The notes under the pieces were generated by a model. That model was not told where the DNA came from and did not search any database. It worked only from the letters and a program-made list of their open reading frames with translations. Both the position numbers and the translations under genes were made by a program. DNA of 61,936 nt, counting the filler, from Sluysia triapertura (Eukaryota): the NCBI GenBank assembly GCA_046118255.1. It is 5 parts of 5 records of this genome, joined end to end, with 100 filler letters (N's around TTAATTAATTAA, not from the genome) between each part and the next. Parts side by side here need not be neighbours in the genome. Positions count along the whole stretch, not along the records: positions 1 to 14,619 come from JBJNIA010253192.1; positions 14,720 to 27,217 come from JBJNIA010103544.1; positions 27,318 to 39,065 come from JBJNIA010174031.1; positions 39,166 to 50,374 come from JBJNIA010187313.1; 1 more part is not named here. One strand, 5' to 3'. Shown in pieces: positions 9,454 to 45,895 of this stretch (within the stretch, counting starts at the first letter, position 1; each line of letters starts with the position of its first letter).

Positions 9454-10913
9454 TACCACATTATGCATAAATATGTTAGTTTTCATCGAATCATAATAAA
9501 TTGCGATAAAATAAATATAAGAAAACAGACTTGCCTTGATAACATCGAAAAATATAGAAGTATTCGCAAAAAATATGGTTAAAATAATTGCTTTAAGTGT
9601 TGGATATTTGATTAAAACTCAATGGAGTTTATAAATTATTTCACCATAATATTTCAATTTATATAAAAATAATAAGATGATTAAGGCCACAATAAAATAA
9701 GTACCAATAAAATACGCAGATGAAAACATAAAATGTTTCATTGTATAATAAACACCACAAAATGTATAAACAAACTCACTAAATTTATCACTTGTATCAA
9801 TTAAATTTTCTAAAATTGGAGATGCCGTTTCATCGTGTGGTAGCCAACATTCATAATCACAAAATAAATCTATTAAAATTTCACAACATCTAAATCACAA
9901 TCATATTTTACACTACCAGATTACATTAACCAACTTTTCAGAAACAATACTCTACATTTACAATAATTCAACAACAAACACATCTGAAACAACCCTTTCG
10001 AACCTTCAATTTATACTACTCTATAACAGTTAATACTCAATATGTGATAATATTTACTCAGTAGTTTATTGGTTTAAATCAAATCACAATCACAACTTCC
10101 AACATACAAATCACAAGTACATTTAATACTATTTCACAACATCAATAAATTTACTCGAAACATATAGAGTACCTACTTCATACCTTCGAATTAACTACAA
10201 CATGTCGAATGCACTACTCATCAACGCATAATCATCATTAACACAGAACATCAACACTAAAAACACCAAACAAAATAATCACACAAAACATAGCATAATA
10301 ACATCATCAATATACAAAGAGTTATATTGTAATTCTCCTCGTAAATTCAATAAATTACTGTCTTCTCAATAAACCTTTATCCATTATAATTCAATACGTA
10401 AGACTTGTTTTCAAATATTAAATTTTCAATCAATTTAGAAGAGCTTATCCTAACACTCTTCATTTCGTTTCTAACTCAAACCAATCATTATATCTTCATA
10501 GGTTAACTCTACTTAACAATCATTTTGTTTATTTCAAAATGCATTTTAACTCATTCCAACATGCTTAAATCCTTCAAGAATTTAATACAAATCTAACACA
10601 GCTCTAAAGAGTTAATTTTATAAAACAAAGCACCAACAATAACTCGAGCATCGTGTACCCTGTCACTTTGCTTCTTCAAGCACATCAGCGATCTTTATTT
10701 CAGTTTGTCTTTTATATGTAAGAAATAAACAGTGAAGAAAGAAAAGTTCACGTTGTTTTGTAAAGAAAGTTTATGCGTTAAATTACATTTTTTGTTTCAT
10801 TAGTAATAATAATAACAATATTATTGTAAATATTATTATTATCAGTTATATAACTAAATCAGTAAATTATTTTATCCAAAGTTTCAATTCCAATTGTCAA
10901 ATCTGGTATCTAT

Positions 10914-11066
10914 CATCATTAGTGTTGACACAATGTATAACAATACTCATGAATGTGTCAACACTGATGATGGCCAGTCATCAGTACTAATAATTTTTAC
11001 ATGTCACCCAATCAGAGCTGATTTTGTCTAATGTTCTCTTTCGGGGCTCTGATTGGATGACCAATC
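10914..11066 (+). promoter_or_regulatory. Cargo-cassette upstream module: 19-bp hairpin plus paired CCAAT motifs
   Basis: Arms 10914-10932 and 10954-10972 (18/19 match); CCAATCAGAGC...GCTCTGATTGG; GATTGGATGACCAATC at 11051-11066. Confidence 0.55.
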
Positions 11067-11149
11067 AACCATGATTAAACAAATCCAATTTTATAATTTT
11101 TAATTAAAAAGTACAAAAGAGGAAAACAACACAAGAAGCAACGGTAACA

Positions 11150-12068
11150 AATTTTCAAAAAGATACTCAAAATTTACGAAACGATAGAATAAAAAACTTG
11201 GAGTATATACTATCGAAAACTCAAATCCGTTTTAAGTGAATTTTTTAAAGCCGATAATGATATATAATCAATCATTGATATATCCAATGATGTTAAACTA
11301 CACATTCACAACTTCCACCAAGAAATCGAATCTGATGAAGCAAATCATATGGGAGAATTAATAAGAATGATTAAAGCCATTGATGATCCTAACCAATTGT
11401 TATATCTTATTAATTTTACTTTAGATCCAGATTTTAGTTAAAGTTTTAATTCAACATTGTATTCTCTTATGATAATTAAAGATGAGTATGTTGTGATTCA
11501 TTCATATAAATCAACATGCGATATCGTCACTGAGTTAGTAACTCAACTAACAGAAAACGAGACTTTGAATTTTGATCCGAATAATCTGGTTGTTTATCAC
11601 ACCAAAATAAAGAATTTAAGCGATTCCAAAAGCTATGATGAAATAGTCGAATCAGCAGACGTAAGAGCTGAATTAACTATGAAATTAAAAGGAGTACAAG
11701 TCGAGATCGACATGCTGAATAAAGTTTTTAGAAATGCAACAAAACTACATATATTTCATATGCAAGCTACAGAAAGTTTAAATAACGCTGAAACTGTTTA
11801 TGTACTAATTAGCCCATCAACAATATACCAATTCATGTATGTTACTCGTAATTCAACTATGTCAAGGAGAATGACGCTCATTTATGAGAGACTATTAGGT
11901 CACGAAGAGGTATTCTTATATCTAACTAACCTTATATCACGAACCTTATACCCACGTGATCGTCAATCAACAGTGAAGTTTATAATTATTTCTAATGCTT
12001 TTAATAAACTAACAAATCTCAAAGGTAAGTGCTCAAATTCAACGAATGATGAAATTATTATGCTATAA
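11150..12068 (+). pseudogene. Intronless ORF of unknown family X, copy 1 (weakly MSV199-like)
   Basis: 203-aa ORF 11457-12068 extends upstream through stops; AATAAA at about 12135; colinear similarity to 42700-43800. Confidence 0.5.
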
Positions 12069-14619
12069 TAATTATGGTTATTATTATTATTATTATTATA
12101 AATATACTAAAAGAACTAAAATATCTTAGTATATTAACAAATATTTAGAACAATTTGAAGTTCTTTTAAATTTAGAGATTATATGTATTACTGTAATAAA
12201 ATAAAGTGATTATTAAAATTGTCAATTTTAATGTTTTAACGTAATAAATGTTGTATAATGCGTTGTTTGAAAGATTTCAATAATAATATTCAATAAAAAT
12301 AAATATTATTCAATAAAACGATAAATATTCCGTGATTAATTAAAAATAAGCAAAAATAAATGAATAAATTATTCGACAATAACTTTCAAATTTCTAGTAT
12401 ATTTTCTTTGTTCTGCAGTTGTATTTTGATTGTTTTTATGGGAAGAATTTTCTTTCCGACATGAAATTTATACATGGATTGTCCTTTCATATTTTATTTA
12501 TATGATATCTAATTAATTTTTTCCCACAGTTTATTATTCATTGACGTTGAAATGGAATGTATTATTAATTATCAAAATTTTCAAACGTGTTTACGTCATT
12601 CCTAAAGAAAATTTCAAATGATTTATATCCGGATTGAAAAGTAAAATGACGATTTGTAACACGATTACTAAACCTTGTTGCTGAAATAATATATGCTTGA
12701 TTATTCAACTGATTATTTTCTAAGACATTGTGATAGTTTGCTGCATTTAAAATGTTGAAGGAATCATGAAATTTTATATAAAATCCGTCCAGTGCATTGA
12801 TTTCAGTGAATATAATAATTTTTGACTTTAGAACATATACAAAAATGTGGCTAAGTCGTCCTTCTTATGAGGCATGTGAATCAGTCGAAATATATAGATA
12901 CATCTGACTATAGAGTGTTTGGCAAATCAAAATTAAATTGATTCATTTGATTCAAAAGTTCAATTTTAGATTAAAATCATTAGCTTCTAAATTAAATATG
13001 ATTTATACATCCTCTATAATAGTGCTATTTCAATTTATTAAATTTCATATTTTTAATAATGTGCTATTTCAATTTATTAAATTTCATATTTTTAAAAATC
13101 TTCTGACTTAATGAATTAGTATAATAAAAGATATCCATATAATTAGTTCCATTTTTGAGTAATTTTGAATTCAACCTTTTATACCTAAAATTATACTTGT
13201 ATTTTACGATTTATAAAATATGTTGCTTTTTAAGGCTTTTTAAATAATATTTAAAATATTTTCAAACGATATTCTGAAAAACATTTCTCTCATAGATTTT
13301 CAAATTTATTTAACTGCTTTATTCAAACTTTAACTGCTTATCAATGATAAATTTTGAGTGTCGTTATTTTTTATTGTTTAAAATATTGTAATTAAAATAA
13401 AATGCAGTATTAAATTATAATAGATTAATAGAAGATTAATTGATGTATTGACTTAAAGAGAGTGACATCGCTTAATTTGTATTTATTGCAAAAATGAGAA
13501 AAACAATATTTTGTTCCAAATTAATAGTTTCCTAATTAAAAATTAAAAATAAAAATAAACCAGATCATTCTTTTTTTCGTCATAATTACCTATTTCATGC
13601 AAAAAATTCTAAATTTTTTAAATATAAGTATTTCTCGTTTATTTGGGTATTAAAAATGTTTTTTATATATTACAACGATTATTTGATCTATTATTAAATT
13701 CAAAATATATTTAATATAATGAAATATTATTTTGATATTTCTTTTAAATCAATATTTGCTTAAATATATCTTTTAGAGAAGAAGCGCATAAAATGCTTAG
13801 TCTGCACTAGACTAAATTTCAAAAATAATTCACTTTTCACAATTGTTATACTTGTTGATATTTTAAAACCTATTACATTCTCAACTTTTGAACGTATTAG
13901 AAACGCAAAATACATTTTTAAATAAAATCAATTTTAATAAATATAATTGACACTATCAAAAGTAAGCATTTTTAAAATGTATTCATTCATCATTATTGAA
14001 CAAGTGATTATTCCATATAGTTCATTTTCAATAATTTATTGGTTATCTTCTGTGTGATTTACAATTTGATCTTGTTCTAAACTCTGAGAATTCACTTTTA
14101 AAATTCTCAAATTTTATTTGATTAAAGGCAGTCTAATTTAGTAATTAATTTGGTAACGTATTTCAGTGTCTTTTGAATATCTGTGTATTTTGAAATCATA
14201 AATATTTCCAGAAATATATTTTTTAAGCCTTTAAAATTTTAATATTTCCAGCGTCTTAAAATTGAATATGACTACTATTGTTGGTGGATAAAATTATTAT
14301 TTTAAAATTGTTAAGGGCTAACACGCCTTATAATAATAATAATTAAAAAAATAATTAATAATTTTAAAAAACTAGGGCGTAACGCCCATTAATACAAAGA
14401 AAAAATTAAAATAAAATAAAATAAAAAAATTATGTTTAAGACTTAGTGTCTATTGTAAAAAAAATTGTGAAAATCATTGAATAGAGTGTGACACACATTA
14501 AGTAAACAATAAATAATTGCAGCAACGACAATAAAAACAATAGAAAAATAAGAGAAAATAATAAAATCTGAACAAACAAAGAATTTCGTATTTTTTGACT
14601 TTTCTGCTAGAATCATATT

Positions 14620-14719
14620 NNNNNNNNNNNNNNNNNNNNNNNNNNNNNNNNNNNNNNNNNNNNTTAATTAATTAANNNNNNNNNNNNNNNNNNNNNNNNN
14701 NNNNNNNNNNNNNNNNNNN
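14620..14719. other. Assembly spacer N44-TTAATTAATTAA-N44
   Basis: Exact 100-bp structure with a six-frame stop linker, seen four times. Confidence 0.97.
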
Positions 14720-15095
14720 GAAAGTGTATTTATTTTAGAAAGTGTATTTATTTTAGAAAGTGTATTTATTTTAGAAAGTGTATTTATTTTAGAAAGTGTA
14801 TTTATTTTAGAAAGAAGTATGATTTTGACCGAGTTCATATAAGAAATCCTTAATATTAAGCAATGCCAAATTTAATTAATTCTTAATTAAATTGTACTTA
14901 GAATTATACTTACTTTTTTTTATACTTAGAATGATGAAAATATAATAAATTGAGTATGAGATGATTGCTATGAATGAACTTAAAATGTTTGTAAAATGTC
15001 TGATAATTAGAACCTTAAACATTTTTATTAGAAAAATGGATGTGACAAATCGAAAATCATTTAAATTAAAAAAGTAATTTATTAATTAATTTAAT
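14720..15095 (+). mobile_element. Family A internal fragment starting with an 18-bp x5 tandem at the contig edge
   Basis: (GAAAGTGTATTTATTTTA)x5, then sequence matching about 6640-6860 and 37370-37660. Confidence 0.65.
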
Positions 15096-15587
15096 GGTGG
15101 AAAATTATTAATAAATTTTTGAAGTTGCGGTGGCCAACTGGTGGCCTGAAATTTAAAAACAATTATTTCAATCACATTTTCACACTCATTATCTTTCTAC
15201 ATTATACCTTTTCAGAACCCATCAAAACCTTTTCTATATTTTACATTCTTTTTAAATTCATTAAAACCATTTTTATACTTCAAAACATTTTAAATTCACA
15301 ATTTTTCAACATCCAAACTTTAGTTTCATTCAAAAACATCCAAGGTAAATTTAAAAATTCATTTTATGAATTTTAAAATTAATTTTTTAAGATTTATTTC
15401 GAAGAATTAAGACATTGAAAAGTAAAGATCGTTTCAAATTATTATTATTATTATTATCAAAATTATGTATCAAGTATATGAATTAAATTCATTCTAGTAC
15501 GTAATTTAAATTATCATATTATAACTATTATTATTATTACTTTTATTTTACTCTTATCATTATTATCAGTATTAACATACAACATTT

Positions 15588-15739
15588 ACGGACACTCATA
15601 CAACGATGACGGACACTCATTGAGATCATTTATTTTGACGTGCATAATTAACTTCACATAAAGCTAAATGGACACCCAATAAGATCTGTTATTTTATCTT
15701 TTTATTCTTATTTTATCTTTTTGATTGGATGTCCAATCA
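15588..15739 (+). promoter_or_regulatory. Cargo-cassette upstream module with paired CCAAT palindromes
   Basis: ACGGACACTCAT twice (15588, 15609), ATGGACACCCAAT (15668), GATTGGATGTCCAATC (15723). Confidence 0.55.
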
Positions 15740-15990
15740 GTTCACAAAAAAACAGAGTTTAAAAATAAAAATTTTAAAATAATATCTACCAGCATTATTG
15801 TAATGATCAATAGCATGTAATAAACAAAATTTTAGAATTAAAAATGGTGCTTAAAAAAGATATACAAAATTAAAATATTAGTATCTTTAAATTTTGTAAA
15901 AGTTCAATTTAAATCAATAGTTATACTAGTTTGTCAAAATTCGGATTCTTTAATTTATACATAGTAATTTAAGAAAAATAAAAGTAAAAG

Positions 15991-16623
15991 ATGAATGAAA
16001 CACTTCAAACGAAATACAATAGTGATATTATACAATCTAGCGTCTCCGAAAATCATAAATATCAGTGTGAAATTTCAGCGAATACCTCATCAGTACTCCA
16101 ATCATCTAATGTATCTAAGCCAATATATGATATTATGGAATCTCCAAGTATATCATCAAAATCCAAAACCTGTTGATCGTGAATCAGCGAAACGTTTAGC
16201 AAAACATTTGTATGATTGTGATGGATTCAGAATAACATATATCAAATCATTTATCCAAAAGGAATGAATTTAATCGGGTTGTTGGAGTTGAATTTTCAAA
16301 TTTACGACTTGACAAAGCACTACGGCAATTTCTGAGCAAATTAACACTAGTTGACAAAACGCAAGAACGAGAACGTATTATGCATCACTTTTCAAAACGT
16401 TATACGATTTGGTGAAGACGGTTGTCACAATTTAGTTTGTGCTCTGATTATCTTAAATACAAATTTACAAGGTCCAATTTATCCAAAATTATCATGCAGG
16501 AATTTTATAAAAGGTTTGAAAGTACTTAATGATGATGAAAGTTTTAAATCCGAAAACCTTCAAGAATTATTTGATTCAATCGAACAAGAACCTATTAAGT
16601 TACCTGTCAATGATGAATATTAA
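15991..16623 (+). pseudogene. Intronless, frameshifted Sec7 domain of EFA6/PSD type (Arf6 GEF)
   Basis: Across frames: SAKRLAKHLYDCDGF, LDKALRQFL...KTQERERIMHHFSKRY, DGCHNLVCALIILNTNLQG...LQELFDSIEQEPI, matching EFA6/PSD Sec7 motifs. Confidence 0.88.
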
Positions 16624-17829
16624 TACCAATAAATTGCATGTTTTCCCGATCGAATAATTTAGTTATCTCTTTTAGCAATCCTAGTTCCGGAGTCACAGAT
16701 GTTAATTCAATCCGCGAATGGCACTATTGTACAGAAGTTTTTTTAACGAAACTCGAGGTCGCAAAACATCATTCATTAATCACACCTTGATAATCTATCA
16801 GGTTGATTCAAGATATTTAACTACACATCAATGTGAACAATAAAATTTAGATCTTTCCACTTCTGATTTAGATTCAAATGTCTTGACATTCAGTAATAAT
16901 TCTACAAGGGCCCGAAGTTCCTCTAAATGCGTATCAAAAAGAGTAATTGATATTGCGAATTATGATTCCATGGAACCAAATGAAAGGTGTGTAATTGATG
17001 GGTAAACAAATTATGTTAATTCAAGTGAAATGATAGAACTTTTTGATGTAATAGATGATAGTTCACAGAAATTAAACGAAGTTAAACATTTAGCAACTAA
17101 CTATCAAACCAGAAACATGACATGTAACAAACGAAGATATTAATTCTGCAGCAAGAGTAACAGAGAAGGTTGACAATTTTTGGCTAGACTATTAATGAAG
17201 CCCAAACAATAATACAATAAAGTAATTTACTCTATTTATCCAGATTTTAACTAATTGTGATATTTTTTACTTCAGGATCACAACAACCAGTACATACAAA
17301 AAGGTGTACGCCTTTTATCCCCTGTATTAGTAAATTAAATCTTAGCATTTTAGTAAATAAATGTTTTCGCATGTTTTTTTAATTCTCTTCAAGTTTTCAA
17401 AATTACGAATATTTTATAAAATAAAATTGGAATTATCAAATAAAAGTATTAATATGATATTTGAGATAACATAAATTTAAATAATAGTAATCCTATGATC
17501 AATCTGAATAATCAATACCTTTAGAAGTTATATTCATGAGCTTTTTGTTATTCTAGAATCACTTTTTGGAAGATAGTTGATTTAATTCTGTTTTACATCA
17601 AGCCTAGTTTTCATTTCGTATATATTAATTAATATTTTGTTTAATTTTCTTATTTTATTTGAATTATTTTATTTGACAGTAGTTTTGTATATTAGATTGA
17701 TAATAGTAATTACATATAATTTTGAAAATTTGATTGGAATTATTTACTTTTATTGTATTTACGTTAAAATAGGTTTGACAGTAATGAGAAAATTTTTAAA
17801 TAATAAATAGATTCGTATTGTAAATAAAG

Positions 17830-18563
17830 AAAAATTCTTTGTGATAAATTTTATTAGATTGTTACTATATTTAGTAACATTTCAAGTTAAGTTAATTTTG
17901 CTATTAAGTTATTCTTATAAATCATTAAACAAAGACGTAACAATATTACGTATATATACATACATGAAGTTGGATGATCCAATTTCAAAAAGGGTACGTA
18001 CGGTAGATAAAAAGATTAAAATACAATAAAATAAAAAGCTAAAAATAAAAAGATAAAATATTAAAAGATAAATCAATAAATTAGAATTTATACTAAATTA
18101 AATTTAACTTATTTATTTATTCCGTTTTGTATATTTTATTTATAAAATACAAAAATGTGACAATGATATTAGTAAGACAAAATAATAAATCTGCCAGAGC
18201 GTTTAATCTAATACTCAAATATTTTAAGTCGATATTACTTTTCAATATACCGGGGACTTCAAAAATTTACAAAGTAATAGAAAATTTGCGTGTATTTTAT
18301 AATGTCAACTTATAAAGTTGAAACTGACCTTATAAATATATAAATTACCAATAGATTCGCTGCAAAAATGAATCAAATGATTTTTCAAAATAGCGATTTT
18401 CATTAAACTGATGCTAGTTTATATACCACTCATCAGCCAATGAAAATCGATGGAACATTCTAGAAGCTTTTCTTTTTTGGAAAATAATTCTTTTTTATGT
18501 GATTTTAAATATTTTTAAGTGTTATTATGATATTTTAAATTATTTTATAGAGTTGCGATGACA
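17830..18563 (-). mobile_element. LTR-like family B copy
   Basis: Minus-strand start TGTCATCGCAAC and core TTCCATCGATTTTCATTGGCTGATG...TATAAACTAGCATCAGTT, shared with 28128, 56543 and 59356. Confidence 0.65.
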
Positions 18564-19301
18564 ACCTAACAATTTGATTAGTTTTGTCAGGTAATAATCA
18601 TGATAACATTGTAAAATAATAATAACGACAAGATTAAAAGTTGAATTTAAATCGATAAAAAAATAGACTAATTATATTAAGAGAAAATTGTAAGATCTCT
18701 TATTGGACGATTGCGCATTACCATAGTTACGAATGCATACGCCACAAAGTTAAGATATTAAACGTTCAGAATTATTATTGATAAAATCCTATAGGTTGTA
18801 ATTCACTCACTATTTTGCGTAGGAGTACAATGATTCATATTTTGTTTAAATTAAAATATATATATTATTCAAATTTTACTTAGTTCAATATACACAATGA
18901 TATTTTTTTAAATGCCAAATCTATTAAATATCTTATGTTAATTAAACATGGAGAATTAGTCAGCATTTTACAATATCCATACAATTACAGTTTATTGCAC
19001 GAAATAATATCTATACGAAATTAGTAATAAAACATTGATTTAATTAAAAGTACACTTATTAATTTATATATTAATAATTTTACGATTCAAATTTAAAAAT
19101 ATTATGAATAATTACTACTTATTTTCTGTAGTAAATAAGCATAACGAAACTTGTTAAATTTTGACAATTTTGTATCGCGTTTATTGAAAACCAATAATTT
19201 TCAAATGTTGGCATTTTAATAATTATAAGATTTGTTTGTGTAGAATTTAATTTTCAATCAGTATTAATTTTGCAATTTTTAAATTAAATTCGTGAAAGTC
19301 T

Positions 19302-19490
19302 ATGATTAAATCAATTTGGATAATTTCAATTACTTTTTCATTATTATTATTGTTATTATTATCAAATCCTTTATTAGGATTAACAATCGAAGAAAAACAA
19401 TTATTACTGGATTTGCATAACTTTTACCGTAACAATTACGTATTGCATAATCATGATAGAGTTAAATTATCTGGTGATTTAACGGTTTTG
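19302..19490 (+). CDS. Exon 1 of a secreted CAP/SCP/TAPS (venom-allergen-like) protein
   Basis: Signal peptide, then LTIEEKQLLLDLHNFYR (CAP N-terminal HNxxR motif); phase-0 donor TTG|GTAAGA at 19490/19491. Downstream exons not found. Confidence 0.85.
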
Positions 19491-21671
19491 GTAAGATTTA
19501 TATATATTACATAGTAAAATAAGAATTTGATATAATATATTTAAATAAACTTATTTAATTTATTAAATTTAATATCATATGATCTATAAAAATGTGGCTT
19601 TTTTGGTATTATAAAATAATTGAAATTTATGTCCAACTAATGGTTCTACTCGAGAAAGGAATAATTTATCGAACTTATTTTTAATATGATAAAAAATTGA
19701 ACAACACTAAAAAACAATAGTTTTTGTAGATTTTGCACGAAAAAATATAAATAAAATTACGATTGTAAATACATAAATAATGAATAAAAATAAATAACGT
19801 TAATATAATGTAAAATGTGAGGTGAAATAAAGTAAATTTAAAGTTGCAAATCATATTACAGATGAACGTATATATTAAACAAATTCGCAGCAATTAGTGA
19901 ATCTTTTACAAAAGGACAGTTGAGAATATTAATGTTATTATCATTATTACTATTATCATTATTATTATTATCATTATCATTTTCAAAATAAAACTCAATT
20001 AATTTAAAATTATTTACAAATAAAATTAAAATAATTATCATTTAGATTGTAATGCTTTGTATCAATTTAAAATGAGATTTAATATAGTTAATATAAATTC
20101 AAAATTTAATAACAAATAGTAACTAATTTAAAATCAAAATGTAAAATCATAAAATCAAAGAGAAATCAGTTCAATAGGTAAGTTAAAATCATGTTAAATT
20201 GAGATTCAATAAAACTATTAAACAATTAAAAATGAGTAACATTATTCTCGATTAGAATTAATTTAAATTAAAGATTGGGCAGAATAGAGAAAGTAATGTT
20301 ATACTAAAATTAAAAGCATTATAATAGAGAAAAATTATATTAAAATACGAATAAATATAATTTATATGTAATTAAAATTTAATAGCATATTTTTGATAAA
20401 GAATGATATTTGTAATTTGCTATTATTATTATCTGTTATTAACTAGCAAAAATTTTACTGTATAAGACAAATTTTTATTGAAACCTACTGTTATTATTAT
20501 TACCATAATGAAATATTATGATTATTATTATTAGTGTTTTTTACTACAAGTTAAAATTAAATTACATTGCATATAAACGGTATAATATAAATAACAACAC
20601 ATAAAAGTATCAAACACACATAGTTGAAGAGAAGAATTGATTTTATAATATTTGGAATAAAAGGTTATTTATCGAAAGAAGACTTTATTGAATTTAAACC
20701 ATTTGATTATCGAACTATACATAACTAAAGGCATAGATTCGGAACAAATTTTTGTATATGTCAAATAACGCAGACGAAAAGTAAGTAACAAGTATTATAA
20801 TCTCTATCTGGAAATAAAATTCATTAAAAAAGTTTTAAATAATTTTAATTCATTTTAATCAATACATTTACATTTTACTGAATGTTTAAGTGAATCCAAT
20901 TTGTATAATATTTGTAATTTTAATATTGTTAATACTATCAAACTAATTGCTTGATTATTACAATCGTTGTAATTAAAGAATTATGATTCATTTTCTTGCG
21001 TGCTTAGTTAAATTTTAGCGAAATTTGAGGATAGTGTCCTAAAAGGAACAATGTTAACTGAATATGAGTTGTAACCCTATCGATAAGGAAATACGATAAT
21101 AACGTCTATTTTAAAATAAACCTACTTGGGTATCATTTAGTAAGTAACATAAGATTTCACTTCGAAATGAATAACTCATTGCAATTCCATTCCAATCTAT
21201 CGGAACGAGTATCATAAATAAGACAATAGAGAGTTCGTAAAATAAGTTAACTGTCAAGAGGCTTCAAGTATTGCTAACGAATAATATTTTTACGTAACTA
21301 AATATGTTAAAACTTATCATCGTAGAAGTGAGAATGTGTATATATTAATAAAGTTAAGATTTAAAACATTTCGTTAAGTTTGCATTGATAAGTTTCATCG
21401 TTTACATTTATCGTAAGTTCATATAAAATACATTACTATATATCGATACAAGAAAGCATATATCCAGATTCATTTTAAGTTTTACTAAGTTTGAATATTA
21501 ATTAAATTATTTTTAAATTTAACATTACTATTATTATTATTATCATTATTACAATTATCATCATAATTATTACAATCACTATTACCATCGTTATTATTAT
21601 CAATATTATTACTATTATCATTGTTTTTACTATTATTTTCATTATCATTATATTATTATTGTTTTTGTTCT

Positions 21672-32749: not shown

Positions 32750-32764
32750 ATTCGTCAAAGCATG

Positions 32765-33305: not shown

Positions 33306-33309
33306 AAGA

Positions 33310-34000: not shown

Positions 34001-35064
34001 AGAGGATAATTTACACTAGAATCAATCGATATAATTATTTAGTTTTATTTTGGTTACTTTAATTTGATATTTTTTGGACATTACAGTTTTGGCTGTGTTA
34101 CCATTCGTTAATTGCGCAATCTTATGCTATTAGTGCTCTAAAAAGTTAATTGTTATTTATGTTGGGTTTAAGCAATGGTGGAGCACTTATTAATACTATT
34201 ATTTGTAGAATAAAAACAAAAAGTATTTTTGAAAGAATAAAGTAAAATATCATGATAAGCTGTGTTTGTTAATTGTATATATTTATAAAAACTTTGAAAT
34301 TAGCAAAGCGAAAGACAGATATGAAGGGGGAACCCTTGAAAGGTTTTACTCTTTTATTTAATTTATTAAGTACTCTTTTACATTTATTAATTAATTTAAA
34401 TAAAAATTGTTTTGCTTAATAATTTTGTGAAAAATATCTATGTACGAGAAAATAACATGAAATAAAGTATAAGAAATAAAGTATAAGATGTTGCGAAACA
34501 CGCAGAAGCAGATAAATTAAAATTAATTAAGTTCCTTTAATGTAAAGTTAAATTTGTGTAAATGCGTTGAGTTCTTCATACTTTTATTTTTAAATATCAA
34601 ATTATAATTCAATAACTAAACAAATTTTCTAAAATATTACTTATTGTACAATAAAATTCTTTTATAATAATACATCTATTTTATATAAATAAAACTAATT
34701 ATTCTTTTAATAACAAATGTCTTTTATTATCAACTTCAAAGTTATAAATCTCTAAATATTAAAAATCACAACACTAAAAAATAACAAATAAAAAAGCAAA
34801 TTACTAACCATTTTTTCAGATCCTCATAATACTTATTTTAGTCCGTTGCTGAAGAATAAGCCTCAGTTTCATTGTTTTCCGCAAATGAACTGAGGCAGCG
34901 TCCATAAAGCTAAAAAGTGTTCAGTTTCTTCTTTGTTTTTCCTTGATTTTATGTTCTAATTTTTCTGCAAGAAATGACTGCTTATATAACAGCTTAACAA
35001 TCATTTGAGAGATTGGAAACTGGACAAGACGGAAATTAAACTATTCATTTTTTAGTCGAATTTT

Positions 35065-35730
35065 AATGATTAAATTCCAACAGTAATTTCCTCCAGTACC
35101 CAATTTCATTATCTTTTTAATTATATAAAGATAATGGGATTCGTGATAAACAAACCTCTTATCTTTTCAACATCATTAAATTATATAGCTATTATTATAT
35201 AGCTATTCTATCAATGTGCTATTTATTATCTTAAATTAAGGATAATATTAATGAAATAATAAATTTATTTTTCATAGAAATCAAGTTCAACAAATATTTG
35301 AACTGATATCTTCACGGGTATCAATTTGATATATACTTTACTTATACTTAAACAACAAAACTTTATCTTAATTCCTCAATGATTTCTATTTTATTCTGTT
35401 ATCTATTATCTATTATATATATCAAATTAATTCTTATTAAGGTATCAGTTGAGACACATTTTTGAAGTAGATGCGTAACGTGCGTTTAATGTATGACATA
35501 TTGCATTAAAAATTTTCATTGAAACTAAATTTGTTGTTTAATTAATTTTATGTTTTTATAAGTTAATGTATTATTTGAATAGTACACGTTATTGTGATAA
35601 TGATGTTAAATCTTGATTTTGATTTTGTTATGTTAATAAGATAAGGGGATTGTTTGTCACAACTGCTGAGAGATGATAAATTGGAAGTCGACGGAAATTA
35701 TCGTCAAAATTTAATTGTTGAATTTGGTCG
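35065..35730. repeat. Two diverged head-to-head copies of a third TG-initiated repeat
   Basis: TGTTGAAAAGATAAGAGGTTTGTTTATCAC (minus, from 35172) versus TGTTAATAAGATAAGGGGATTGTTTGTCAC (plus, from 35631). Confidence 0.55.
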
Positions 35731-36719
35731 ACTGTTAATCGATTCAAATGAGAAAGCAATTATGCAAAGTAATTACTTATTTACCTCGCATTTCTAATCT
35801 CCTCAGAAATTATCCTTCGCATTTTTATCAAATGTGCAGAATAAATAAGCAACTAAATGTCAGTAGATGTAAAATGTTGTAAAATTGTATCTGAAGTTTC
35901 ATATTTAGTAATTCGACTAAGCCCTAAAGTGATATTTTTTCGTATTATTATTAGTTCTTTATTATTATTAGTTTGACCGCGTTCTTATTATATATTTCGT
36001 TTATTGTGTCACCTCTGTATTTTGAATATTTTATTTGTTAACTGATTGTATAAATACATTGATTTATAATTGATAATAATCATTATTTCTGTGATTTAAG
36101 AATAGTTTTTAATTTACATTTGTTTTATTGAAAATATGTCGATTTAATTATTGAGTTATTGTTGTTAATTTCAAATAAACATTTCTTGGTTTTTCTACTT
36201 ATTTGGGATATTTAATTTTTACTCTTGATAATTGATATTTATTGAGTTAATATATGTTTATTGCAATAATTGTTAAATTATGATATAGATAATATATGTG
36301 AAGTAAATATTGTATTGATTTTCTGAGTTTAATAGATGCGACAGAGTGGAAAAACTCAATATTGATTGGATAATGACATAAAGTACAAAAAGGAGTAGTT
36401 ATAAAACTTCTCTCGTAGTACACACTCACACAAAAACAAAGATTTTCAGCAGAAGAAGATCCATGAATATTGCTTTATTTAATTTTATATTATTTCTTTC
36501 CAAACATTGATAAATTTAGGGTTATATTTCGTCTAAAATCACTGAGCTGCTTGCTATGCGTTCTTCTGATATAACTCATAGATCGTTACTATTTTTGTTG
36601 TGTCATCTCTGGCCTATTTATTTATGTAATTTTATGTTAATAGTGCTCTATAAAGTTGCTTGTTAACGTTTGTTTGATTTGTAATTTAATATTTAATGGT
36701 TGTTGCATTTATTTGGTAC

Positions 36720-37965
36720 TGTTGGTATTACCTAACTGTTGAATAGAATATGGGTAAAGAAGATCTGAAAATGATAGATGTAAGAAGAATTAATACAAAA
36801 TGATGCGCATAAAAGTTGAAACATTATTGGAACAAAAAATGATAAAAATGAAAACCTATATGAACACTTTGAATACCTTGAATTCCAAAGGTTTTATGGG
36901 TTGTTGGGACCTTTGAGGAGGCTTGAAATGGTTCGAAAAACGTTTTGGAGCATAAAATCTGAGACTTTTTTGAAACTTATTCAACCTTTGAGAATCTTTG
37001 ATATTTCGATAAGCATTTGAGACCTTTTAGTAATCTTTTAAAGTTTTTGAAATTTTTAATATATTTGAAAAATAGAATTATTGTTACAAATATTTAGAAT
37101 AAACTTGAAACATTAATAAATAACATAAAGAAGTAGAAAAAGGAATCAGATTGATGAAGACAGAAGCATTTGGAAACTTCTTATTGCCTTATAAAAACCT
37201 TAATAAAACCTATAAATATAAAGTAGCGCTAAGTTCAAAAATAGAATAATTAAGCAAAATCTTAATTAACTTAAGAAAAAAATATGTTTTTATGAATTAT
37301 GTTTGAATTCGACTTGCTGTATTAAAGTTTTAAGGTTTTAATATATGTTTTTGTTTTAAAAATATTTTTCAATGAAGATATGGTTTGACCGAGTTCGTGC
37401 AAGAAATGCCTTAATATTGAGATAAGTTAAATTTTATTTAATTCTCAATTATGGAATGTTAAATTTTTAAAATTTAAAATAATGACAGGATAATGATTGG
37501 AATGCGAGATGATTCCTATGAAACAGGAGAATCCAAATCTGAGTTTAAAATAGAACAATCTGTTTGAAAATAAGAACTTTAAACAATTTCATTTAAAAAA
37601 TTTGGTGTGAAAAAATGAAAATCAGTTTGATTATAAAAACTAAAATTAAATTCATTATTTTTATCTATGTTAACAGTACTGGTGATTATTATTTTAATGT
37701 GGGAAGTAATTTAAATAAAAAACGATCTAATGGAGAAAAAGAAAATTATAGTTGATCATTAATCAAATTTTTGAGTTCTCTACCTAATAAAGTCTAACTG
37801 ACATATCATGTAGTTTTCAAAGCTGTTATTATCGGTTTAATTATTAAAGAAAATTCTGATAATATGTATAAGAGCATGCTTGATTGGAAAACTCAAGAAG
37901 GATTGGATAATGAGAAAATGTAAAAGGAAATAGTTAAAAACATTACAATACAATTTATATGTTGG
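36720..37965 (+). mobile_element. LTR-like family A copy
   Basis: Starts TGTTGGTATTACC; colinear with 6021-7190. Confidence 0.8.
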
Positions 37966-38126
37966 AGTTGTCTAAAGATAAACATGTTGTAAAGACATTG
38001 CAGTTTGCAGATAAAGGGATCAATATTTTCTAAAGTTTTACAAAAATATATAAATATATTTATTAAACAATTTAATTAAAATTTTTTGAAAATCATATTT
38101 TATCAGTAACTCTTGAATGTGTTTGT

Positions 38127-38280
38127 ATTGCGTCTTTGAAATTATTACTAACAATAAATCAATATCAGTTTAATTTACTTAAATAGAATCTCAATAAATT
38201 CAATACTCACTAGATCAAGTATAAATTATCACAAATTTTCTTATTTTAATGATATTTATTCAACCTAAAAATTACGTTCT
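38127..38280 (-). mobile_element. Family A terminal fragment, inverted
   Basis: Reverse complement matches parts of 7235-7320 and 7530-7576. Confidence 0.65.
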
Positions 38281-39065
38281 TCAATTCAAATTAATAACAA
38301 TAACTCAATAATATAATAATTACAAAATCAAATACAAGAAAGTTATACGTTTCTGCTTTAACAATAATACATGTGAATTAAACAAAAAATGACTAAATTT
38401 CAAAATCAACAATAATATTTATGACAATATTAAGACTACAATAATCTATCCAAAAAAATCAGAGGTGATGCAACAAAAATTAAATTATCAATATCTAAAA
38501 AAATCAGAATAATAATATTTAAATATTTTAGGATAATTTTATTTTTACTTAATAACAGTTGATATCATAAAACAATTTGGGCAGGAATCCTCCCAAAAAT
38601 TAATTTATCAATATTTATTCTCAATTATTTCATTACCATTTTTTATCATTTCATTATCATTATTCTTTATTGTTTTCATATCATTATTTTCTATTGTATT
38701 ATATTCAATTTAAGTTAATATATTATTTTATGAATAAGTATTATTATAACTGTTGTGTTTGCTCAACCGTGTATCATAAGATGAGTGAGAAACGTATAGA
38801 ACTGTAAAATGAAGAAAGAACTGATACATAGCGATGGATTGTGTTGGGATTAGTGAAGGATAAGGGTTGATATAAGGGTCAAAACTTAGGACAACAGAAT
38901 AACTTGAACGTTATTAAATAACTAAGATAAGGTAAAAGTAGGATAAGATTATAAAATACTTAAATCAAGATAAATTAATGAAAAATATGAAGAAATAACC
39001 CTTTACAAGGTTTTATCTGTTAAAATATTAAAGTACATTTGTTAATTAATTTAATTATAATTTGT

Positions 39066-39165
39066 NNNNNNNNNNNNNNNNNNNNNNNNNNNNNNNNNNN
39101 NNNNNNNNNTTAATTAATTAANNNNNNNNNNNNNNNNNNNNNNNNNNNNNNNNNNNNNNNNNNNN
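39066..39165. other. Assembly spacer N44-TTAATTAATTAA-N44
   Basis: Same structure; separate 150-N gaps occur at 39393-39542 and 46344-46493. Confidence 0.97.
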
Positions 39166-39599
39166 GTTATGAAGTTGTATTAAACAATTTTGTTGTCGGT
39201 ATCATAAAACATTTGATAATATGATAATTTATAAAATAGGATAATTTAGTAAAATTGTTATATACATCATTTAAATTGGATAAGTTACTTTACGTACATT
39301 TAAATTAAATTAAATTAAATTTTGAATAAATAATTGAATAAATTTTTAATAATAAAATTTAAATTAATAACAAAATATTTAAATATTAAAAGNNNNNNNN
39401 NNNNNNNNNNNNNNNNNNNNNNNNNNNNNNNNNNNNNNNNNNNNNNNNNNNNNNNNNNNNNNNNNNNNNNNNNNNNNNNNNNNNNNNNNNNNNNNNNNNN
39501 NNNNNNNNNNNNNNNNNNNNNNNNNNNNNNNNNNNNNNNNNNACTTAATTATTTTTTTATTAAAATAAAAAGCAAAAATAATTGATAATTATTAAAAGC

Positions 39600-40491
39600 T
39601 TAATCGATATTCTTGTTAAATAAAATTCCACCAAAGCAAGCTGTCAAACCAATTGTTAAAACCTTTAGAAAAATCAAAATAGTTAAAAAGAAATTTAAAG
39701 GTTATAAAAATGAAGACTCTAAATAGCTATCATTAAAGTTGTTTCATATAATAAAGGACTGCCATTCCTAAAAATATTATTCTAAGAACAATTAGTTAAA
39801 TATAGAAAAGTTTCTGATATGACAATTGAAAACGATTTGATAAAATTGTCGTACAATCAATTAATGAATGTTTTGAGATAGTTAAATTTATGGTATTTAA
39901 ATTTATGGAAATAAAAATCAAGAATTTCTTGACTGTTATTAGATTCTTTTTGTGTTATATTTGTTATAAAATTGAATTTTCTGTTATATCGTTTTTCTTT
40001 ATATTTGTTTTGATTTAATCACTGAAATAAAATTAGAATCATGCCTTATGCCAGCTTTAAATTCAATTAAATTTTGTTTAATTATTTATCAGAATTAAAT
40101 TAAAGTAAATGCGATATAGAAAATCTTAGTAAAGGTACTGAAGGTGATTTTGAATTGCTTTTTAAAGTATTATACATTAAAGGGAATGTAACTGATAATA
40201 AATAATGTTGAACCATTCAGATGTATAGTTAATGTTTTAGTTGATAAGTTTCCAAAAGAACTTTTACAAAATATTGTTAACAAAATTCCAGAAATTTACT
40301 CCAGTTTAAACATAGTATATAGTGTCATTGATACTTTTAATTTGTTAAAATCTCAGAATTATAAACATGTACATGGTAATAGTAATATTCGACATTATTT
40401 TTTAACCCAGTGGGAAGGCGTATCACAAAATACTCGTTCCTCATACCCACCAAGATCTCGAATAGATCGAAACATTCAGCGAGTAATCTAA
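39600..40491 (+). pseudogene. Intronless coding remnant, possibly family X
   Basis: LIKLSYNQLMNVL and KIPEIYSSLNIVYSVIDTFNLL resemble IKAIDDPNQLLYL and MTLIYERLLGHEEVFLYLTNL of copy 1. Confidence 0.3.
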
Positions 40492-41839
40492 ATTATGTCT
40501 GTTACTTGAAATCTTAGACGCACTTAAAGATACAACTTTTAGTAACAACGAACTTCATTGTTTTAAGAAAAACCGGTACCGTACACGACGTCCCCTTTAT
40601 AAGATAAAAACGAAATACTTAAATCTTTTATCGAAAATTTACTTATAATAAGGTTTCGCTTATGATGAACCCAATTCATAATACATCAACATTTAGAACC
40701 GTTTCAAATCCTATATTTTTCACACTAAAACTCAATATCATAAATTAAGTCCTATTAGGATTTCAAAAAAATTTTCAATGCGGTTACGTAACCATAATCA
40801 ATAGGTTACTCAAGTTCGTATTATCAAATCACAGTTATTTTTGTGCTTAACTTATGGAATCCCGTAGTCGTGCATATTGTGCGATCACTAATATTGTGTA
40901 GATTGAACTAATTTCAATGTCACGAAATCGTAAAGTGCATAGTTTCGTAATCTTAAGCTTAAGCAATTAAATAATTATTATGGAATCAATAAATTGAACT
41001 ACCCGTTTGTAAATAAAAATTGAGCTAGTGTGCATTAATGATTGAATTTTATGGATTTTAAAATTTTACAATTGACTAGCCTTCTGAAGGTCTAGTTAAC
41101 GGGTCAGGAGTTTAAATCGTTTATTATAAAATAATTAAATAATCACCTATAAGTTTTATTAAATAACTTAATTATAACAATGTAGAACGTATAAAAAACT
41201 TAATACTTACAAATCTTAATATAATAAAAATATACGAATTTAATCAGGTGTGGTTTCTTAGGACTTTGGATTTTAAACTGAAATTGACCTAGCTTTAGGG
41301 TCTAGGATACACAATAGTTATTTTAAGTAATATTTTACAATTATCCTATTATAAAGTGAGCAATTTTTTAATTTAATAATAAAATAATCTTAAACATGGA
41401 CTAATTTTTCAGCAATATTGAAAATTGCAAAATCCGATTGTCGAAGATCAAAATTTTTTAATAATGGCGTCCAAATTTCATTATTTATTTATAGTGAAAT
41501 TTAGGTAGTCATATTGGTTGTTTTTCTTTCTCGAATTAGTTCGATGAAAAGATTAATTAATTAGTTAGATTAAATAAAATTAAATTAAAAGAAATATCAT
41601 TAAATTACTTATTTATTAAGTTTACATTACTTTATTTAATTAAAAATTTTGTTTTATTTAAAAATTTCTATTTAATTAATTTTGATTTAAACCATTTTTC
41701 TTATTTATTTAAATATTTTTATTAAATTAATTTTACACATTAAATTATTTTATTTAAATTTTTTTATTAATTTTATTCAGACAATTTGTAGGAACAAATT
41801 TTAATATAATACAAATTTACAAATTTTAGATACTTATAT

Positions 41840-42505
41840 TAATTTATGCTTCGCTCATATGTACGGCAAAATAAGTACTCAGAAGCGCTTAAAATAAATC
41901 ATTCAGTGTAATATTTCTGAAACAGAAAGAACGATGCCTTTTTTTAAAGATTTCGTATTCCAGTAATTTGACATTCTCTTGTAGTTGCTTGTTTATTTTT
42001 GAAACATAAACGGAATATAACCTGTAACCTAGCTTATTATCACTGTGGATTCTTTATTTATTATTATGTCTCAATGAAATATTCATCTTGGTTTCCAATT
42101 TTTATTATTTCTAAGAGATAATCAGGACTTCCGTAATGTAAGCATTTGTAAATTATTGTCATGATTTTGAATTCAATTCTTGCTTTTATTGGCAACCTAT
42201 GTAATTCCTTAAGATAAGGTGTTACATGAGATCTTCTTCCCACTTAGAGAATTAGTCTTGCTGCTTGATTAATTATTAATTGTAATTCACTTTTCTATAT
42301 GAATCTTTGTACAGTATTCCATTGTTAAAATCTCTGTTGTTAGTTATCAATGAATAAACAATTAGTTTGGCTGCTTTATTAATAAATTTTCGAATATTTG
42401 ATATTTTATTTAATTGATATTTACACTTTTTAGCAATACAATTAATATTTTCTTCCATGTTCATTTTTGAATCCATATAACAACCTATACATGTACTAAA
42501 AATCG
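41840..42505 (-). mobile_element. 5'-truncated L2/Crack-type LINE (post-RT ORF2 tail and 3' UTR)
   Basis: CIGCYMDSKMNM..YQLNKISNIRKFI..AAKLIVYSLI, QAARLI..RSHVTPYLKELHRLPIKARIEFKI..YKCLH; 3' AAGCGCTTCTGAG motif. Confidence 0.85.
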
Positions 42506-42699: not shown

Positions 42700-43800
42700 G
42701 CGTTATTTTGTACTGACATGAGCAAATCATTCAAACGTCCCAAGTGTTCATTACTGAATTGATTTTTAAGCCATGATAATTTGATTCTAAGATACTATGA
42801 AAATAACAGCAACGTACGCCAAATTTAAGACATGCCGGATTCGTATAGCTGAGATGGACACTGTGCCGAAATTTTATAGATATCAGAAATTACACTTGGA
42901 TTAGAAATAAGTGATTTAGATTGATTGATCTTGTGGTTGATCAGATTGGATATCATACTTTGTTTACTTTTGACTTCATTATAGTTAACCATATTCATTT
43001 GAGATCGTATATATATTACAATTAAACCTTCAAAAATAAATGATGGAAAACTAAGGTCCATATTTTTACTATTATAATTAGCAGTGAATTCACTTATGTT
43101 GGCTTTATTAAAATTTTGATATAAATTTACTTGATTGGTAATATTGACGATAAAATTAGGATCTCTTCGATTCAAGGAGAGTAAAATAACTTCTGAAGCA
43201 GTATTATTTCTTAATGTACTGATCTTGTTGACTAAACAAGTATAAGATATATCTGAAAGATATTGTATTGATCCTTTATACAAATTATCCAGATTTATTT
43301 TGTATAACATCAACAAACGAATGTTAATAATGCGTGGAATGCATAATTTGAACACGTTCTAGATCAGATGTATCGTATAAAAATATTATTGAGTTTTCAC
43401 CATAATTAAACTCTTCATGAAATGAATTAACTATCTTTTCGGAGTGTTGACAAAATTTGGAAAAGAAATTACCAAAGAATCTCTTACTATTATTGAAATC
43501 GTTCTTTGCTTTTATTAAAAGTCCATTGAGTACATGATTATTAATTAATTTTAAGACAATAATGAAATTATTAGTTTGTGATTCCTTTTCATCATCAAAA
43601 TATTTCGCTTTGATTCTGATGAAATCTCTTTCTCTTATAATATACATATTTCTTCCATTCACTGAAAACATATTATACTTATGAAACAAATGTGTAAAAA
43701 TTTTTTGGTATTCGTAAATTTTTAGTACTTTTTTTAAATCTGATTTTTATTAGATTCTATTTTTAGATTTTTACCTGTCTCGAAAAGTAATTTTTAATTC
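42700..43800 (-). pseudogene. Intronless ORF of unknown family X, copy 2 (frameshifted)
   Basis: ORFs 43324-43689 and 42825-43355 align in order with 11150-12068: VQIMHS/VVIHS, IQYLSDISY/IKNLSDSKSY, LISNPSVI/LISPSTI. Confidence 0.5.
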
Positions 43801-43876
43801 TAGCCAATAAAATTATGTTAAATTGTGCACAGTTTTTATTATTTTCTATTATTCGTAACAGAATAGAATCGACTGT

Positions 43877-44098
43877 GATTGGGCGTCCAATACTAGTAAT
43901 TAAAAATAAGATACAAAAATAGTAATTATTGGACGTCCAATCAAAGTAAAATAGAAGTTGACCAAAGTGATAGATTGTTGTGTTAGTAGTTGCGTTACTA
44001 GTTGCAAAATTTGATTAACGCGCTAAGCATCTGTCATCAGTCGACAGTTAACACGATATGCTGAGTTAATTTTAATTAAACTGTCGACTGGTGACAGA
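43877..44098 (-). promoter_or_regulatory. Cargo-cassette upstream module: 20-bp hairpin plus paired CCAAT palindromes
   Basis: Arms 44030-44049 and 44079-44098 (19/20 match); ATTGGACGTCCAATC at 43928 and GATTGGGCGTCCAAT at 43877. Confidence 0.55.
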
Positions 44099-45895
44099 CT
44101 ATTGAAATAAAATACAACAAGCAAATTAATGCCAGCAACAATAATGATAATAAAAATGGTTAAAATAATGATGATAAGTGTAATAAATTGAATAAATAAA
44201 ATAATAATAATACATAAACTTTATTCTTTGAAAATAAAATTCTTTTCCCTTACAAATAAATAAATAAAATTACATAAATATTAATTTCTTTGGATAAAAT
44301 TAATCTTCTTTTCATAGAACATATACAATTAATTTAAATAAAATTTTATTTGAATCCGAATGTTCAGAATGGTTTTAAAGTGTGAGTTTAATGTTTTGCA
44401 AAGATGTTAAAGAAATTACATATTGATTATAATGTTTTAAAGTGATTTTGAAATGTGAATTTAATGTTTTTCACTGATTTTAATGATGAAGTGTTGAAGG
44501 ATTGTGAACTTGAAATGTTTTGAATTAATTTTGAAATGTATATATGATAATTTAAGATGCTGAGTATGATTTTAATATTGTGAAATTGTGAATTTAAAGT
44601 GTTTTAAAGTATCGAAAATTTTAAAGAATTCTAAAGAAGTGAATTATGAAATATTATGAAGTGTGATTTATTTTATTCGTAATGTTTAATTAAAGTTTTA
44701 AGATTAATTAAGTTTTAAGTTTAATTAAAATTTAAAGTTTAAAAAATCAATCATCTGTATTTCACAACGTGTTTCCAACAAGACAATTTGCTTGACAATT
44801 TAATATTTTTTTGAAATTAAAGTTTTGTCATAAAATTTGTAGCATATAAAAAATCCGAATTATTAATTTTGTCACTTTTATTTATTTTTTATTACGTTTT
44901 GTAAGTAGTTTCATTGTAAAATGAACTTTTGAGATAATCTTAGTTTTAACTCTTACATTTTTAGTTTTATTTTGTGCAATAGTTTTTATAATTTTATATT
45001 TAATAAATTTCATTTTTACTGTTTTTTTTTCGATGTAGTATGTGATAATTTCGGTTTTTCTATCATAAGTAAAAATGTTCGACATTGTCCACAATTTGAA
45101 TGTTTCTTCATTCCTAAGCTTAACAGAACGTGAAAGCCCAACAGACCTCTCTTAGTTTATCTAAAGCTGAACCTATTTCAATAAATTTATTGTAAACAAT
45201 TCTTATTGCTTATAATTTTCGTTGTAATTTTCGTGACATTTTTATTAACGGTTTAACAACGATAACATGTTCAAAATATTCCGCTTAATGAAAACTTGCA
45301 TTAATTAAATAAAATAAAGCTTTAATAGGGATGTTATAATTTTGATGAGATATTTGAAAATTCGTTATGTCATATTGTATTATATAGTACTCGTTTTATA
45401 TCATATTATATTACATTATATATTATATTATATTACATTATATATTACATAAATATATAGTATAAAATATAATATATTTTCAAAATCTTACAAGTGAAGA
45501 GTTTTATAATGATACAGTGATAAATTTTATATTTATATAACCCAAGCCGTGACTATTTTAAGACAATTATTGTTGAGTTTTCAAAATTAAGTAATTTCGT
45601 GCACATGTAAAAAAATTCTGTTTCATCAAATAGTAACTAATTGTTATTTTTAAACTTGCCATTGAACAATATTCATTTGAAACATGTGGCAATCACTCAA
45701 TGTTTATTATATTTATATAAATCTTCAAACTTAGGTACATTGAAGATATTAAGTATTTATCATAACATAATGTACACTGATGTTTCATTATGTTCAATTT
45801 ATAGATTTTAGAACGGGTTCTCATAAAAAGAAAGTCAGTATTTTGATTTTAAACAAACTTATTTTAATAAATTTTAATATTGTTTTGCAAATCAG

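Follow-up and report, generated by a model that had tools for sequence, protein, structure and literature searches.

The stretch of DNA analysed here, called the window in what follows, comprises 61,936 nucleotides, filler included, from five joined records of the genome of Sluysia triapertura (GCA_046118255.1), and at three loci within it a leader skewed towards cytosine and adenine (C/A-skewed) and a pair of CCAAT boxes precede a coding stretch. The loci are A (9836..12388, plus strand), B (15126..17523, plus strand) and C (42825..44780, minus strand), and we regard them as copies of a unit that is real, repeated and mobile, joins a promoter to a gene and has taken on no fewer than three unrelated payloads; the class of element given below is a proposal. 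The window is draft DNA and, at mostly 19–31% GC per kb, AT-rich; filler (a 12-base linker with 44 N on each side) joins the records at 14620–14719, 27218–27317, 39066–39165 and 50375–50474, and joins made by the assembly across repeats may be wrong. Evidence on copies comes from the contigs of two public sequencing runs, X1 and X2, matched to repeats at a cut-off of 80% identity. Given that X1 yields contigs that differ from the window by 0–3 letters at a depth of 8–22, it should represent the same or a very close organism, and perhaps the source sample; X2 carries a different organism label.

Common layout and cargo genes

The order of parts is identical at A, B and C: a TG start, the leader, an AAT tract, a hairpin or repeat, the CCAAT pair, a short block and the open reading frame (ORF). 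The starts read TGTGG at 9836 in A, TGCGG at 15126 in B and, as a candidate, TGTTGG at 44780 in C. The leaders behind them (9836..10360 and 15126..15400 on the plus strand; 44300..44780 on the minus strand, with an internal duplication of ~84 bp) have C–G skews of 0.62, 0.83 and 0.68, respectively, against a 99th percentile of 0.55 among 300-bp windows. The leaders of B and C are homologous (69% over 101–128 bp, E 2e-12 to 4e-12; score 63 against a 99th percentile of 40), and the likeness of the A leader to that of C is marginal (38 against 32). In A, a hairpin at 10914..10972 (plus) stands behind the AAT tract (~10804–10850), and another is found in C at 44030..44098 (minus); their folding z scores of −5.19 and −4.25 were reached by none of 200 shuffles, and they are the sole long-stem hairpins with GC-containing arms in a scan of the window. 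B has no hairpin (z 0.45) and instead carries a 21-bp tandem direct repeat at 15576..15620 (plus).

The exact palindrome ATTGG-N4-CCAAT occurs in the window at four sites (11052, 15724, 43878 and 43928), only at A, B and C, against an expectation of 0.02; four exact palindromes were reached in 0 of 100 shuffles, and with one mismatch allowed seven are found against 2.1 expected. The only same-strand CCAAT pairs 35–70 bp apart in the window are likewise those at 11008/11061 (53 bp), 15676/15733 (57 bp) and 43887/43937 (50 bp). In A the pair (11008..11065, plus) joins a bare CCAAT half site at 11008 to one palindrome at 11052–11065; in B (15667..15737, plus) a one-mismatch copy at 15667–15680 precedes the exact copy at 15724–15737; and in C (43878..43941, minus) both palindromes are exact, at the 50-bp spacing. 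From the sequence, such boxes would presumably be bound by NF-Y. A block of ~21 bp then recurs 92, 118 and 150 bp past the second CCAAT of A (11153..11174, plus), B (15851..15871, plus) and C (43717..43737, minus), by a pattern derived from these three loci themselves that has one shorter chance match elsewhere; the block likely lies close to where transcription or the reading frame begins. An earlier note on this DNA had described the common layout, with its C/A-skewed leaders, a hairpin or direct repeat, and two ATTGG-N4-CCAAT motifs 50–57 bp apart, and the description is borne out apart from the motif itself, for which the spacing is right but two full palindromes are present only at C.

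Several other assignments for these parts were considered and set aside. The CTGATGA in the hairpins, if taken as part of a hammerhead ribozyme, has no GAAA partner, and scans with Rfam and ARAGORN found nothing; a reading of the leader start as a primer-binding site meets no TGG in B. A scan with the palindrome motif gave two viral matches, neither with blastn likeness to the window, and the leader-start motif had no match in metagenomes.

All three motif pairs stand ahead of a coding stretch in the same orientation, which random placement reproduced in 2 of 200,000 trials (the targets having been picked from these loci), so the adjacency of motif pairs and coding starts is not a matter of chance. 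Outside a gypsy element described below, the window holds four stop-free frames of at least 120 codons, all at A or C. Cargo A (11268..12068, plus) contains an open 199-amino-acid ORF at 11469–12068, whose openness was matched by none of 2000 shuffles, and a 57-codon stretch upstream in the same frame, with one stop between. This protein is an orphan: no match was found in Pfam, PHROGs, NCBIfam or ESM Atlas (recognition 2693, nothing usable), a homologue search scored 0 of 153 candidates, and scans for the locus had 5 candidate stretches in viral contigs and 72 in metagenomes, none of which was confirmed. Its single-sequence fold has a predicted local distance difference test (pLDDT) score of 38.5. 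Cargo C (42825..43746, minus) consists of two overlapping frames of 140 and 177 codons, which are likely one frameshifted orphan gene; Pfam and PHROGs scans gave no relative, a search of longer proteins with the first frame scored 0 of 47 candidates, and ESM Atlas gave nothing usable for the second (recognition 1238). An NCBIfam match of cargo C to ZorA, at 19.6 bits against a cut-off of 500, was taken as noise. Cargoes A and C had been assigned to a single family in the earlier note, an assignment that comparison does not support (blastp E ~1, with 77, 906 and 239 of 1000 shuffles equalling the observed scores); the short block is all that the two have in common.

Cargo B (15991..16623, plus, in several frames) is a Sec7 domain, the catalytic domain family of guanine nucleotide exchange factors for Arf proteins (Arf-GEFs), matched by PF01369 at 36.5 and 40.7 bits against a cut-off of 22. 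Profile positions 54–112 fall at 16236–16412 (E 2.5e-10) and positions 122–183 at 16351–16620 (E 4.9e-9), so that the two segments are neighbors in the DNA and no intron separates them. The copy in the window is frameshifted and its reading frame stops past Sec7, and a lysine is aligned to the position of the catalytic glutamate. A Glu-to-Lys change there, known as E242K, is the customary inactive laboratory form of Arf-GEF enzymes; in the present copy the lysine may be simple decay. The best PDB matches of the piece are cytohesins, four frames downstream gave no match to a PH domain, which in EFA6/PSD proteins follows Sec7 together with a coiled coil, and a homologue search of longer proteins scored 0 of 13 candidates. 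The earlier note had spoken of an EFA6 Sec7 domain; the Sec7 part stands, the searches gave Sec7 only, and the likeness to EFA6 is putative. A bacterial, RalF-type origin was rejected at 15–24 bits against a cut-off of 400. Further short coding-like frames lie in unit B past Sec7, at 16620–17200 (plus), with an X1 depth of 220–430 and no Pfam match; they are possibly a second cargo or the remainder of a captured mRNA.

The expectation of an intronless ORF within ~100–250 bp of the motifs is thus only partly realized, in that Sec7 is intronless but the intact ORF of A begins 408 bp past the motif and the cargoes of B and C are frameshifted. A fourth C/A-skewed tract, at 23870–24376 (minus; skew 0.47), has a TG start and no CCAAT pair; it lies directly behind a decayed, intronless coding-like stretch at 24548–25261 (minus) without a Pfam match.

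Boundaries and abundance of the unit

Unit B is inserted into a copy of another repeat of this genome, here called family D, which is LTR-like (LTR, long terminal repeat), ~1.2–1.4 kb long, and has TGTT...AACA ends, a C/A-skewed start and an AAT tract. The two flanks of B (14803..15125 and 17524..17942) both align to family D in a single orientation, on the minus strand, the left half with scores of 63–121 to other D copies and the right half closing with a D-type terminus at 17942. Two X1 contigs skip B, from 15108 to 17550 (depth 87) and from 15126 to 17556 (depth 36), and the pentamer GAAGT stands on both sides of 15126–17523, at the expected junction, as a candidate target-site duplication (15121..15125 and 17524..17528, plus; chance ~0.05 in a 60-bp search zone). 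Because the flanks are the two halves of one family-D repeat, because contigs skip the interval and because of the 5-bp duplication, B is taken as a bounded insertion of 2398 bp that begins with TG and ends with TA. Two AATAAA motifs at 17420..17444 (plus), 85–105 bp short of that end, are predicted polyadenylation (polyA) signals, a prediction that is weak in AT-rich DNA.

The insertion bears on what kind of element is involved. The earlier note had proposed a modular expression cassette within a large mobile element or an endogenous virus; a modular mobile unit with different cargoes is what the loci indicate, but B does not lie within a larger element, having been inserted alone as 2.4 kb. 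An endogenous large DNA virus or Maverick, whose early-gene cassettes would typically hold intronless orphan ORFs behind a shared promoter, is therefore a highly improbable source: B is a stand-alone insertion, neither PolB, integrase, capsid nor long terminal inverted repeats were found around the cassettes (47 frames in Pfam and 8 in PHROGs, from the window only), cargo A has no relative in viral contigs, and the two viral motif matches are unlike the window. Nothing in the window points to a DNA virus or Maverick.

A discrete 2.4-kb insertion with a 5-bp duplication would also suit an element that bears promoter and cargo and is either a non-autonomous DNA transposon of the Pack type or unclassified, with asymmetric ends. 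Two weak X1 joints from the AAT tract of B to its 3′ tail (15540–17410 and 15549–17434; side 20, one contig each) resemble the internal deletions of such elements. Against this, no transposase is linked to the units, and neither direct nor inverted terminal repeats were found in A and B (scores 21–24 against background medians of 22–25; for inverted ends, A 24 and B 22 against medians of 22 and 25), and we consider an origin of this kind rather unlikely. A single unit without terminal repeats fits one LTR better than either an element with terminal inverted repeats, such as Pack-MULE, hAT or Ginger, or one with two LTRs.

Other placements of the ends were rejected. Extending B to 17964, where a 6–8-bp repeat would close it, would take in 17524–17942, which aligns to family D and hence is flank. 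A processed pseudogene made by a long interspersed element (LINE), or a short interspersed element, should have a polyA or simple-repeat tail and a 5′ truncation of variable extent, and would not be expected to lack a tail before the duplication, as B does, or to be deepest in its 5′ leader. A cargo antisense to an LTR on the minus strand lacks the polypurine tract at the expected place. For A, a CA-terminated candidate end at 12377–12388 weakly resembles the end of B, by a motif taken from A and B. The end of C is hidden by a LINE-like fragment, and its closure by an 8–10-bp repeat at 41786 was set aside since the site lies within an apparent LINE 3′ tail. That fragment, at 41750–42500 (minus) just behind cargo C, has no Pfam match and resembles the 3′ end of a CR1/L2-type LINE.

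In summed X1 contig depth, read as a ratio, the leader of A stands at 15,672–24,941 (bins 9870–10343) and that of B at 4,953–9,752, where unique flanks have ~8–50, and it is accordingly a very abundant repeat. Depth in A is still 25,647 at 10977, on the 3′ side of the hairpin, and falls to 1,633 at 11044 and 331 at 11093; cargo A has 226–397, and beyond 12477 the depth is 26. In B the CCAAT pair stands at 123–155, Sec7 at 733–1,010 (16124–16591) and the rest of the unit at 218–430. The leader therefore exceeds cargo A and cargo B in abundance by one to two orders of magnitude, and both cargoes are themselves repeated, at no less than 10 times unique depth. The excess of Sec7 over its own promoter region is consistent with coding constraint across diverged subfamilies. 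In X2 the leader of A is covered (depth 11–26), and cargo A is found in two pieces, at 86% and 95% identity among the matches listed.

It might be argued from the 10–100-fold greater depth of leader and hairpin, which implies that most leader copies are unattached to cargoes A or B at 80% identity or more, that the motif is part of a short repeat in its own right, with the ORFs as no more than neighbors. We consider this very improbable, given that every motif pair precedes a co-oriented coding stretch (at the random rate, and with the choice of targets, stated above), that the cargoes are repeated and that B and its leader were inserted as one piece.

The same profile of depth has two further interpretations. 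In the first, the LTR would consist of leader and promoter only (0.7–1.3 kb), and the cargo would be an internal retrocopy in a non-autonomous element that has lost its 3′ LTR in the present copies. Depth falls steeply right at the promoter of A, B has a TGG 20–30 bp past an AATAAA near 15846, and the mechanism is a published one, at least as set out in the part of that account available to us (PMC5131818); yet the halves of its target enclose B, whose 3′ end has no further copy of the leader, and TGG is missing at the matching place in A and C, so that this explanation seems unlikely. In the second, leader and hairpin would be the common 5′ part and old terminator of a Helitron-type element, which would have gained its cargoes through end bypass or through retroposition downstream of a promoter that it had captured. 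Just past the hairpin most copies part from A, Helitron growth would fit a 5′ part in common followed by 3′ parts that vary, as well as the microsatellite and the hairpin, and bat Helitrons are described, in the portion of the source available, as joining captured promoters to retrogenes and amplifying them (PMC4224331). The starts here are TG rather than TC, however, B has a candidate duplication, no hairpin and no CTRR end, and the CTAG at 17553 falls in the family-D flank, outside B; a Helitron is, if anything, a still less likely source than a Pack-type element.

A giant LTR as the candidate element

The interpretation we favor, with slightly less than even confidence, is that A, B and C are decayed solo copies of giant LTRs (~2.4–2.6 kb) from a Ty3/gypsy- or BEL-type retrotransposon, each with a gene between a predicted twin-CCAAT promoter and a predicted polyA signal. 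It starts from the shared layout, the abundant leader, the rarer but repeated cargoes, the bounded B and the intronless Sec7, which are observed; every step beyond B as a bounded insertion is one we infer. The unit would be one LTR, and a full element at another site in the genome would supply the reverse transcriptase and integrase that copy it. Cargo would enter through a switch of template to a spliced mRNA, the route taken in LTR-mediated retroposition, and the gene, once seated between the CCAAT promoter and the polyA signal, would be copied along in each cycle and kept coding while the element replicates. Recombination between LTRs would leave a solo LTR that is a complete promoter–ORF–polyA cassette, and the intronless gene would differ from one subfamily to the next. 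The exchange of cargo rests on three loci, and active swapping would be a further step.

Besides the motif statistics, the steps in depth, the insertion of B, the lack of terminal repeats and the depth of Sec7, two further observations were counted in favor of giant LTRs. The contiguity of Sec7 contrasts with the host gene at 54.4–59.3 kb, where two consecutive kinase-homology-domain exons (54440–54615 and 59110–59315, plus, by a Pfam kinase match) are separated by an intron of ~4.5 kb, so host genes in the window have long introns; this gene resembles an animal receptor guanylyl cyclase. In addition, all three units start with TG, and family D, which lies beside gypsy pol, opens alike. The latter suggests that LTRs of this genome likely share the arrangement of TG, C/A skew and AAT tract in general, and it follows that a C/A-skewed leader does not set the cassette apart.

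Several points weigh against giant LTRs. No second LTR, gag, pol, primer-binding site (PBS) or polypurine tract (PPT) tied to A, B or C was found in the window, although absence of the PBS and PPT beside A and B is as expected of solo copies. The leader of A has no clear alignment to those of B or C, and in comparisons of the starts of A, B and C with D starts only 1 of 15 pairs exceeds the 99th percentile; by sequence the three units are not clearly homologous to family D. The contigs that skip B have sides of 23–25 letters, with the intervening letters unread, the duplication at B has a chance rate of ~5%, and B, in a decayed copy, ends in TA rather than CA. The 3′ ends of A and B are only weakly alike (their score was reached by 15–362 of 500 background comparisons), no target-site duplication was found for A when one was looked for, and C has no defined end and only chance-level duplication candidates. 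Finally, summed depth serves as a ratio and not as a copy number, its values over AAT tracts come out too high, such bins at B having been disregarded, and the comparison covers loci A and B.

Family D has many nested and inverted copies in the window (6020–7383, 14803–17942, 21672–22845, 31475–33990, 36971–38856 and 47541–47783) and an X1 depth of ~35,000–40,000 at 14837–15070. Its copies flank gypsy fragments (1–5000) on their strand. The fragments belong to a decayed Ty3/gypsy element at 1–7576 (minus), with matches to RNase H, integrase and aspartyl protease, a second protease-like frame past the integrase and no gag seen; a 227-codon frame, labeled envelope-like without a Pfam or PHROGs match, has its stop overlapping a family-D start at 77. 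Upstream, at 7383 and 7576, are further D-type starts. In their match to two D starts bases 1–77 outdo 2000 of 2000 background stretches, but they match the upstream D starts poorly (531 and 69 of 2000). In the two family-D copies that were checked, AATAAA is missing on the strand of the gypsy frames, which is odd for an LTR. The 13-mer ACAGTTTAATTAA is common to the hairpin of C (44084, minus) and to family-D copies at 6835 (minus) and 31759 (plus), and in each of the three it lies shortly past the AAT tract; a trace of common ancestry is possible, as is chance.

Other repeats and fragments were noted. A repeat of middle X1 depth (455–1,323), at 8657–9835 (plus), lies directly against unit A and has TGTGGTGG as its own start; the element of A may include it as an internal region, or it may represent a related end. 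At 9045–9452 a fold-back element with terminal inverted repeats, resembling a miniature inverted-repeat transposable element, is skipped by X1 contigs (joint 9037 to 9454). Tigger/pogo-like transposase fragments (a weak DDE_1 match) and what is presumably a C2H2-like zinc-finger frame are found among the stretches 48956–49261 (plus), 61147–61402 (minus) and 46593–46889 (plus).

Relation to known elements

Genes that travel in an LTR are known from retroviruses: MMTV sag and lentiviral nef are ORFs in U3, and they survive in solo copies. Those viruses have one fixed accessory gene each, unlike the present unit, whose cargo appears interchangeable and includes a captured host Arf-GEF domain. Pack-TIR and Pack-MULE elements are similar as non-autonomous elements of 1–3 kb with host sequence, and dissimilar in that A and B lack terminal inverted repeats.

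LTR-mediated retrocopies have been described across metazoans (PMC5131818) and, as far as the available text of that study goes, share with cargo B an intronless and truncated piece of a host gene, the lack of a polyA tail, the tie to a retrotransposon and the presence at multiple sites. Those retrocopies have LTR remnants on both sides, as presented there, whereas promoter, ORF and 3′ tail here seemingly lie inside one unit, and one leader family here serves several unrelated cargoes. LTR elements with extra ORFs include Juno and Vesta of bdelloid rotifers (PMC5408684), Retrosat2 and RIRE8 with ORF0 (PMC3485330), and Burro of planarians and Ogre of plants (PMC6431247), and LTRs of more than 3 kb with many solo copies are known as well (PMC3485330). 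The sections of these papers that were available describe accessory ORFs that vary among relatives, LTRs of 2–6 kb and many solo LTRs, all of which resemble the present case; their ORFs lie in the internal coding region or polyprotein, however, with none described inside an LTR in those sections, and Sec7 does not occur in the rotifer paper (PMC5408684). The wording "embedded in the LTR" in another paper concerns tandem repeats in the excerpt available (PMC3286476). The bat element HelibatN424 is, in the extract of its description available, a mobile unit that brings a ready promoter to a retrogene and amplifies the pair (PMC4224331); by the same extract Helitrons start with TC, end with a hairpin and CTRR and make no target duplication, and TC...CTRR ends were not seen here. 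No description of exchangeable genes inside an invertebrate LTR, or of a transposon-borne Sec7, was found in a literature search that took in few subscription journals and no supplements, and a Repbase-type entry is possible.

Retrocopies usually arrive without a promoter. Should the loci prove to be a standard LTR with captured internal sequence, they would be a good example of a published mechanism. A bolder and more doubtful proposal is a superfamily of giant LTRs, or an unclassified element, whose terminal repeat would itself be a full expression cassette with an exchangeable payload; one leader family would have given rise to many subfamilies, each with its own captured or orphan gene, a Sec7-only Arf-GEF among them selected to steer host membrane traffic for the element, and solo copies would have seeded hundreds to thousands of units in this animal genome. 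A repeat that unites a promoter, an ORF slot and a polyA signal, and that has taken up three or more unrelated payloads, would let new multigene families and orphan genes arise directly, and its payloads would list the host pathways useful to the element, the Arf-GEF pointing to membrane traffic.

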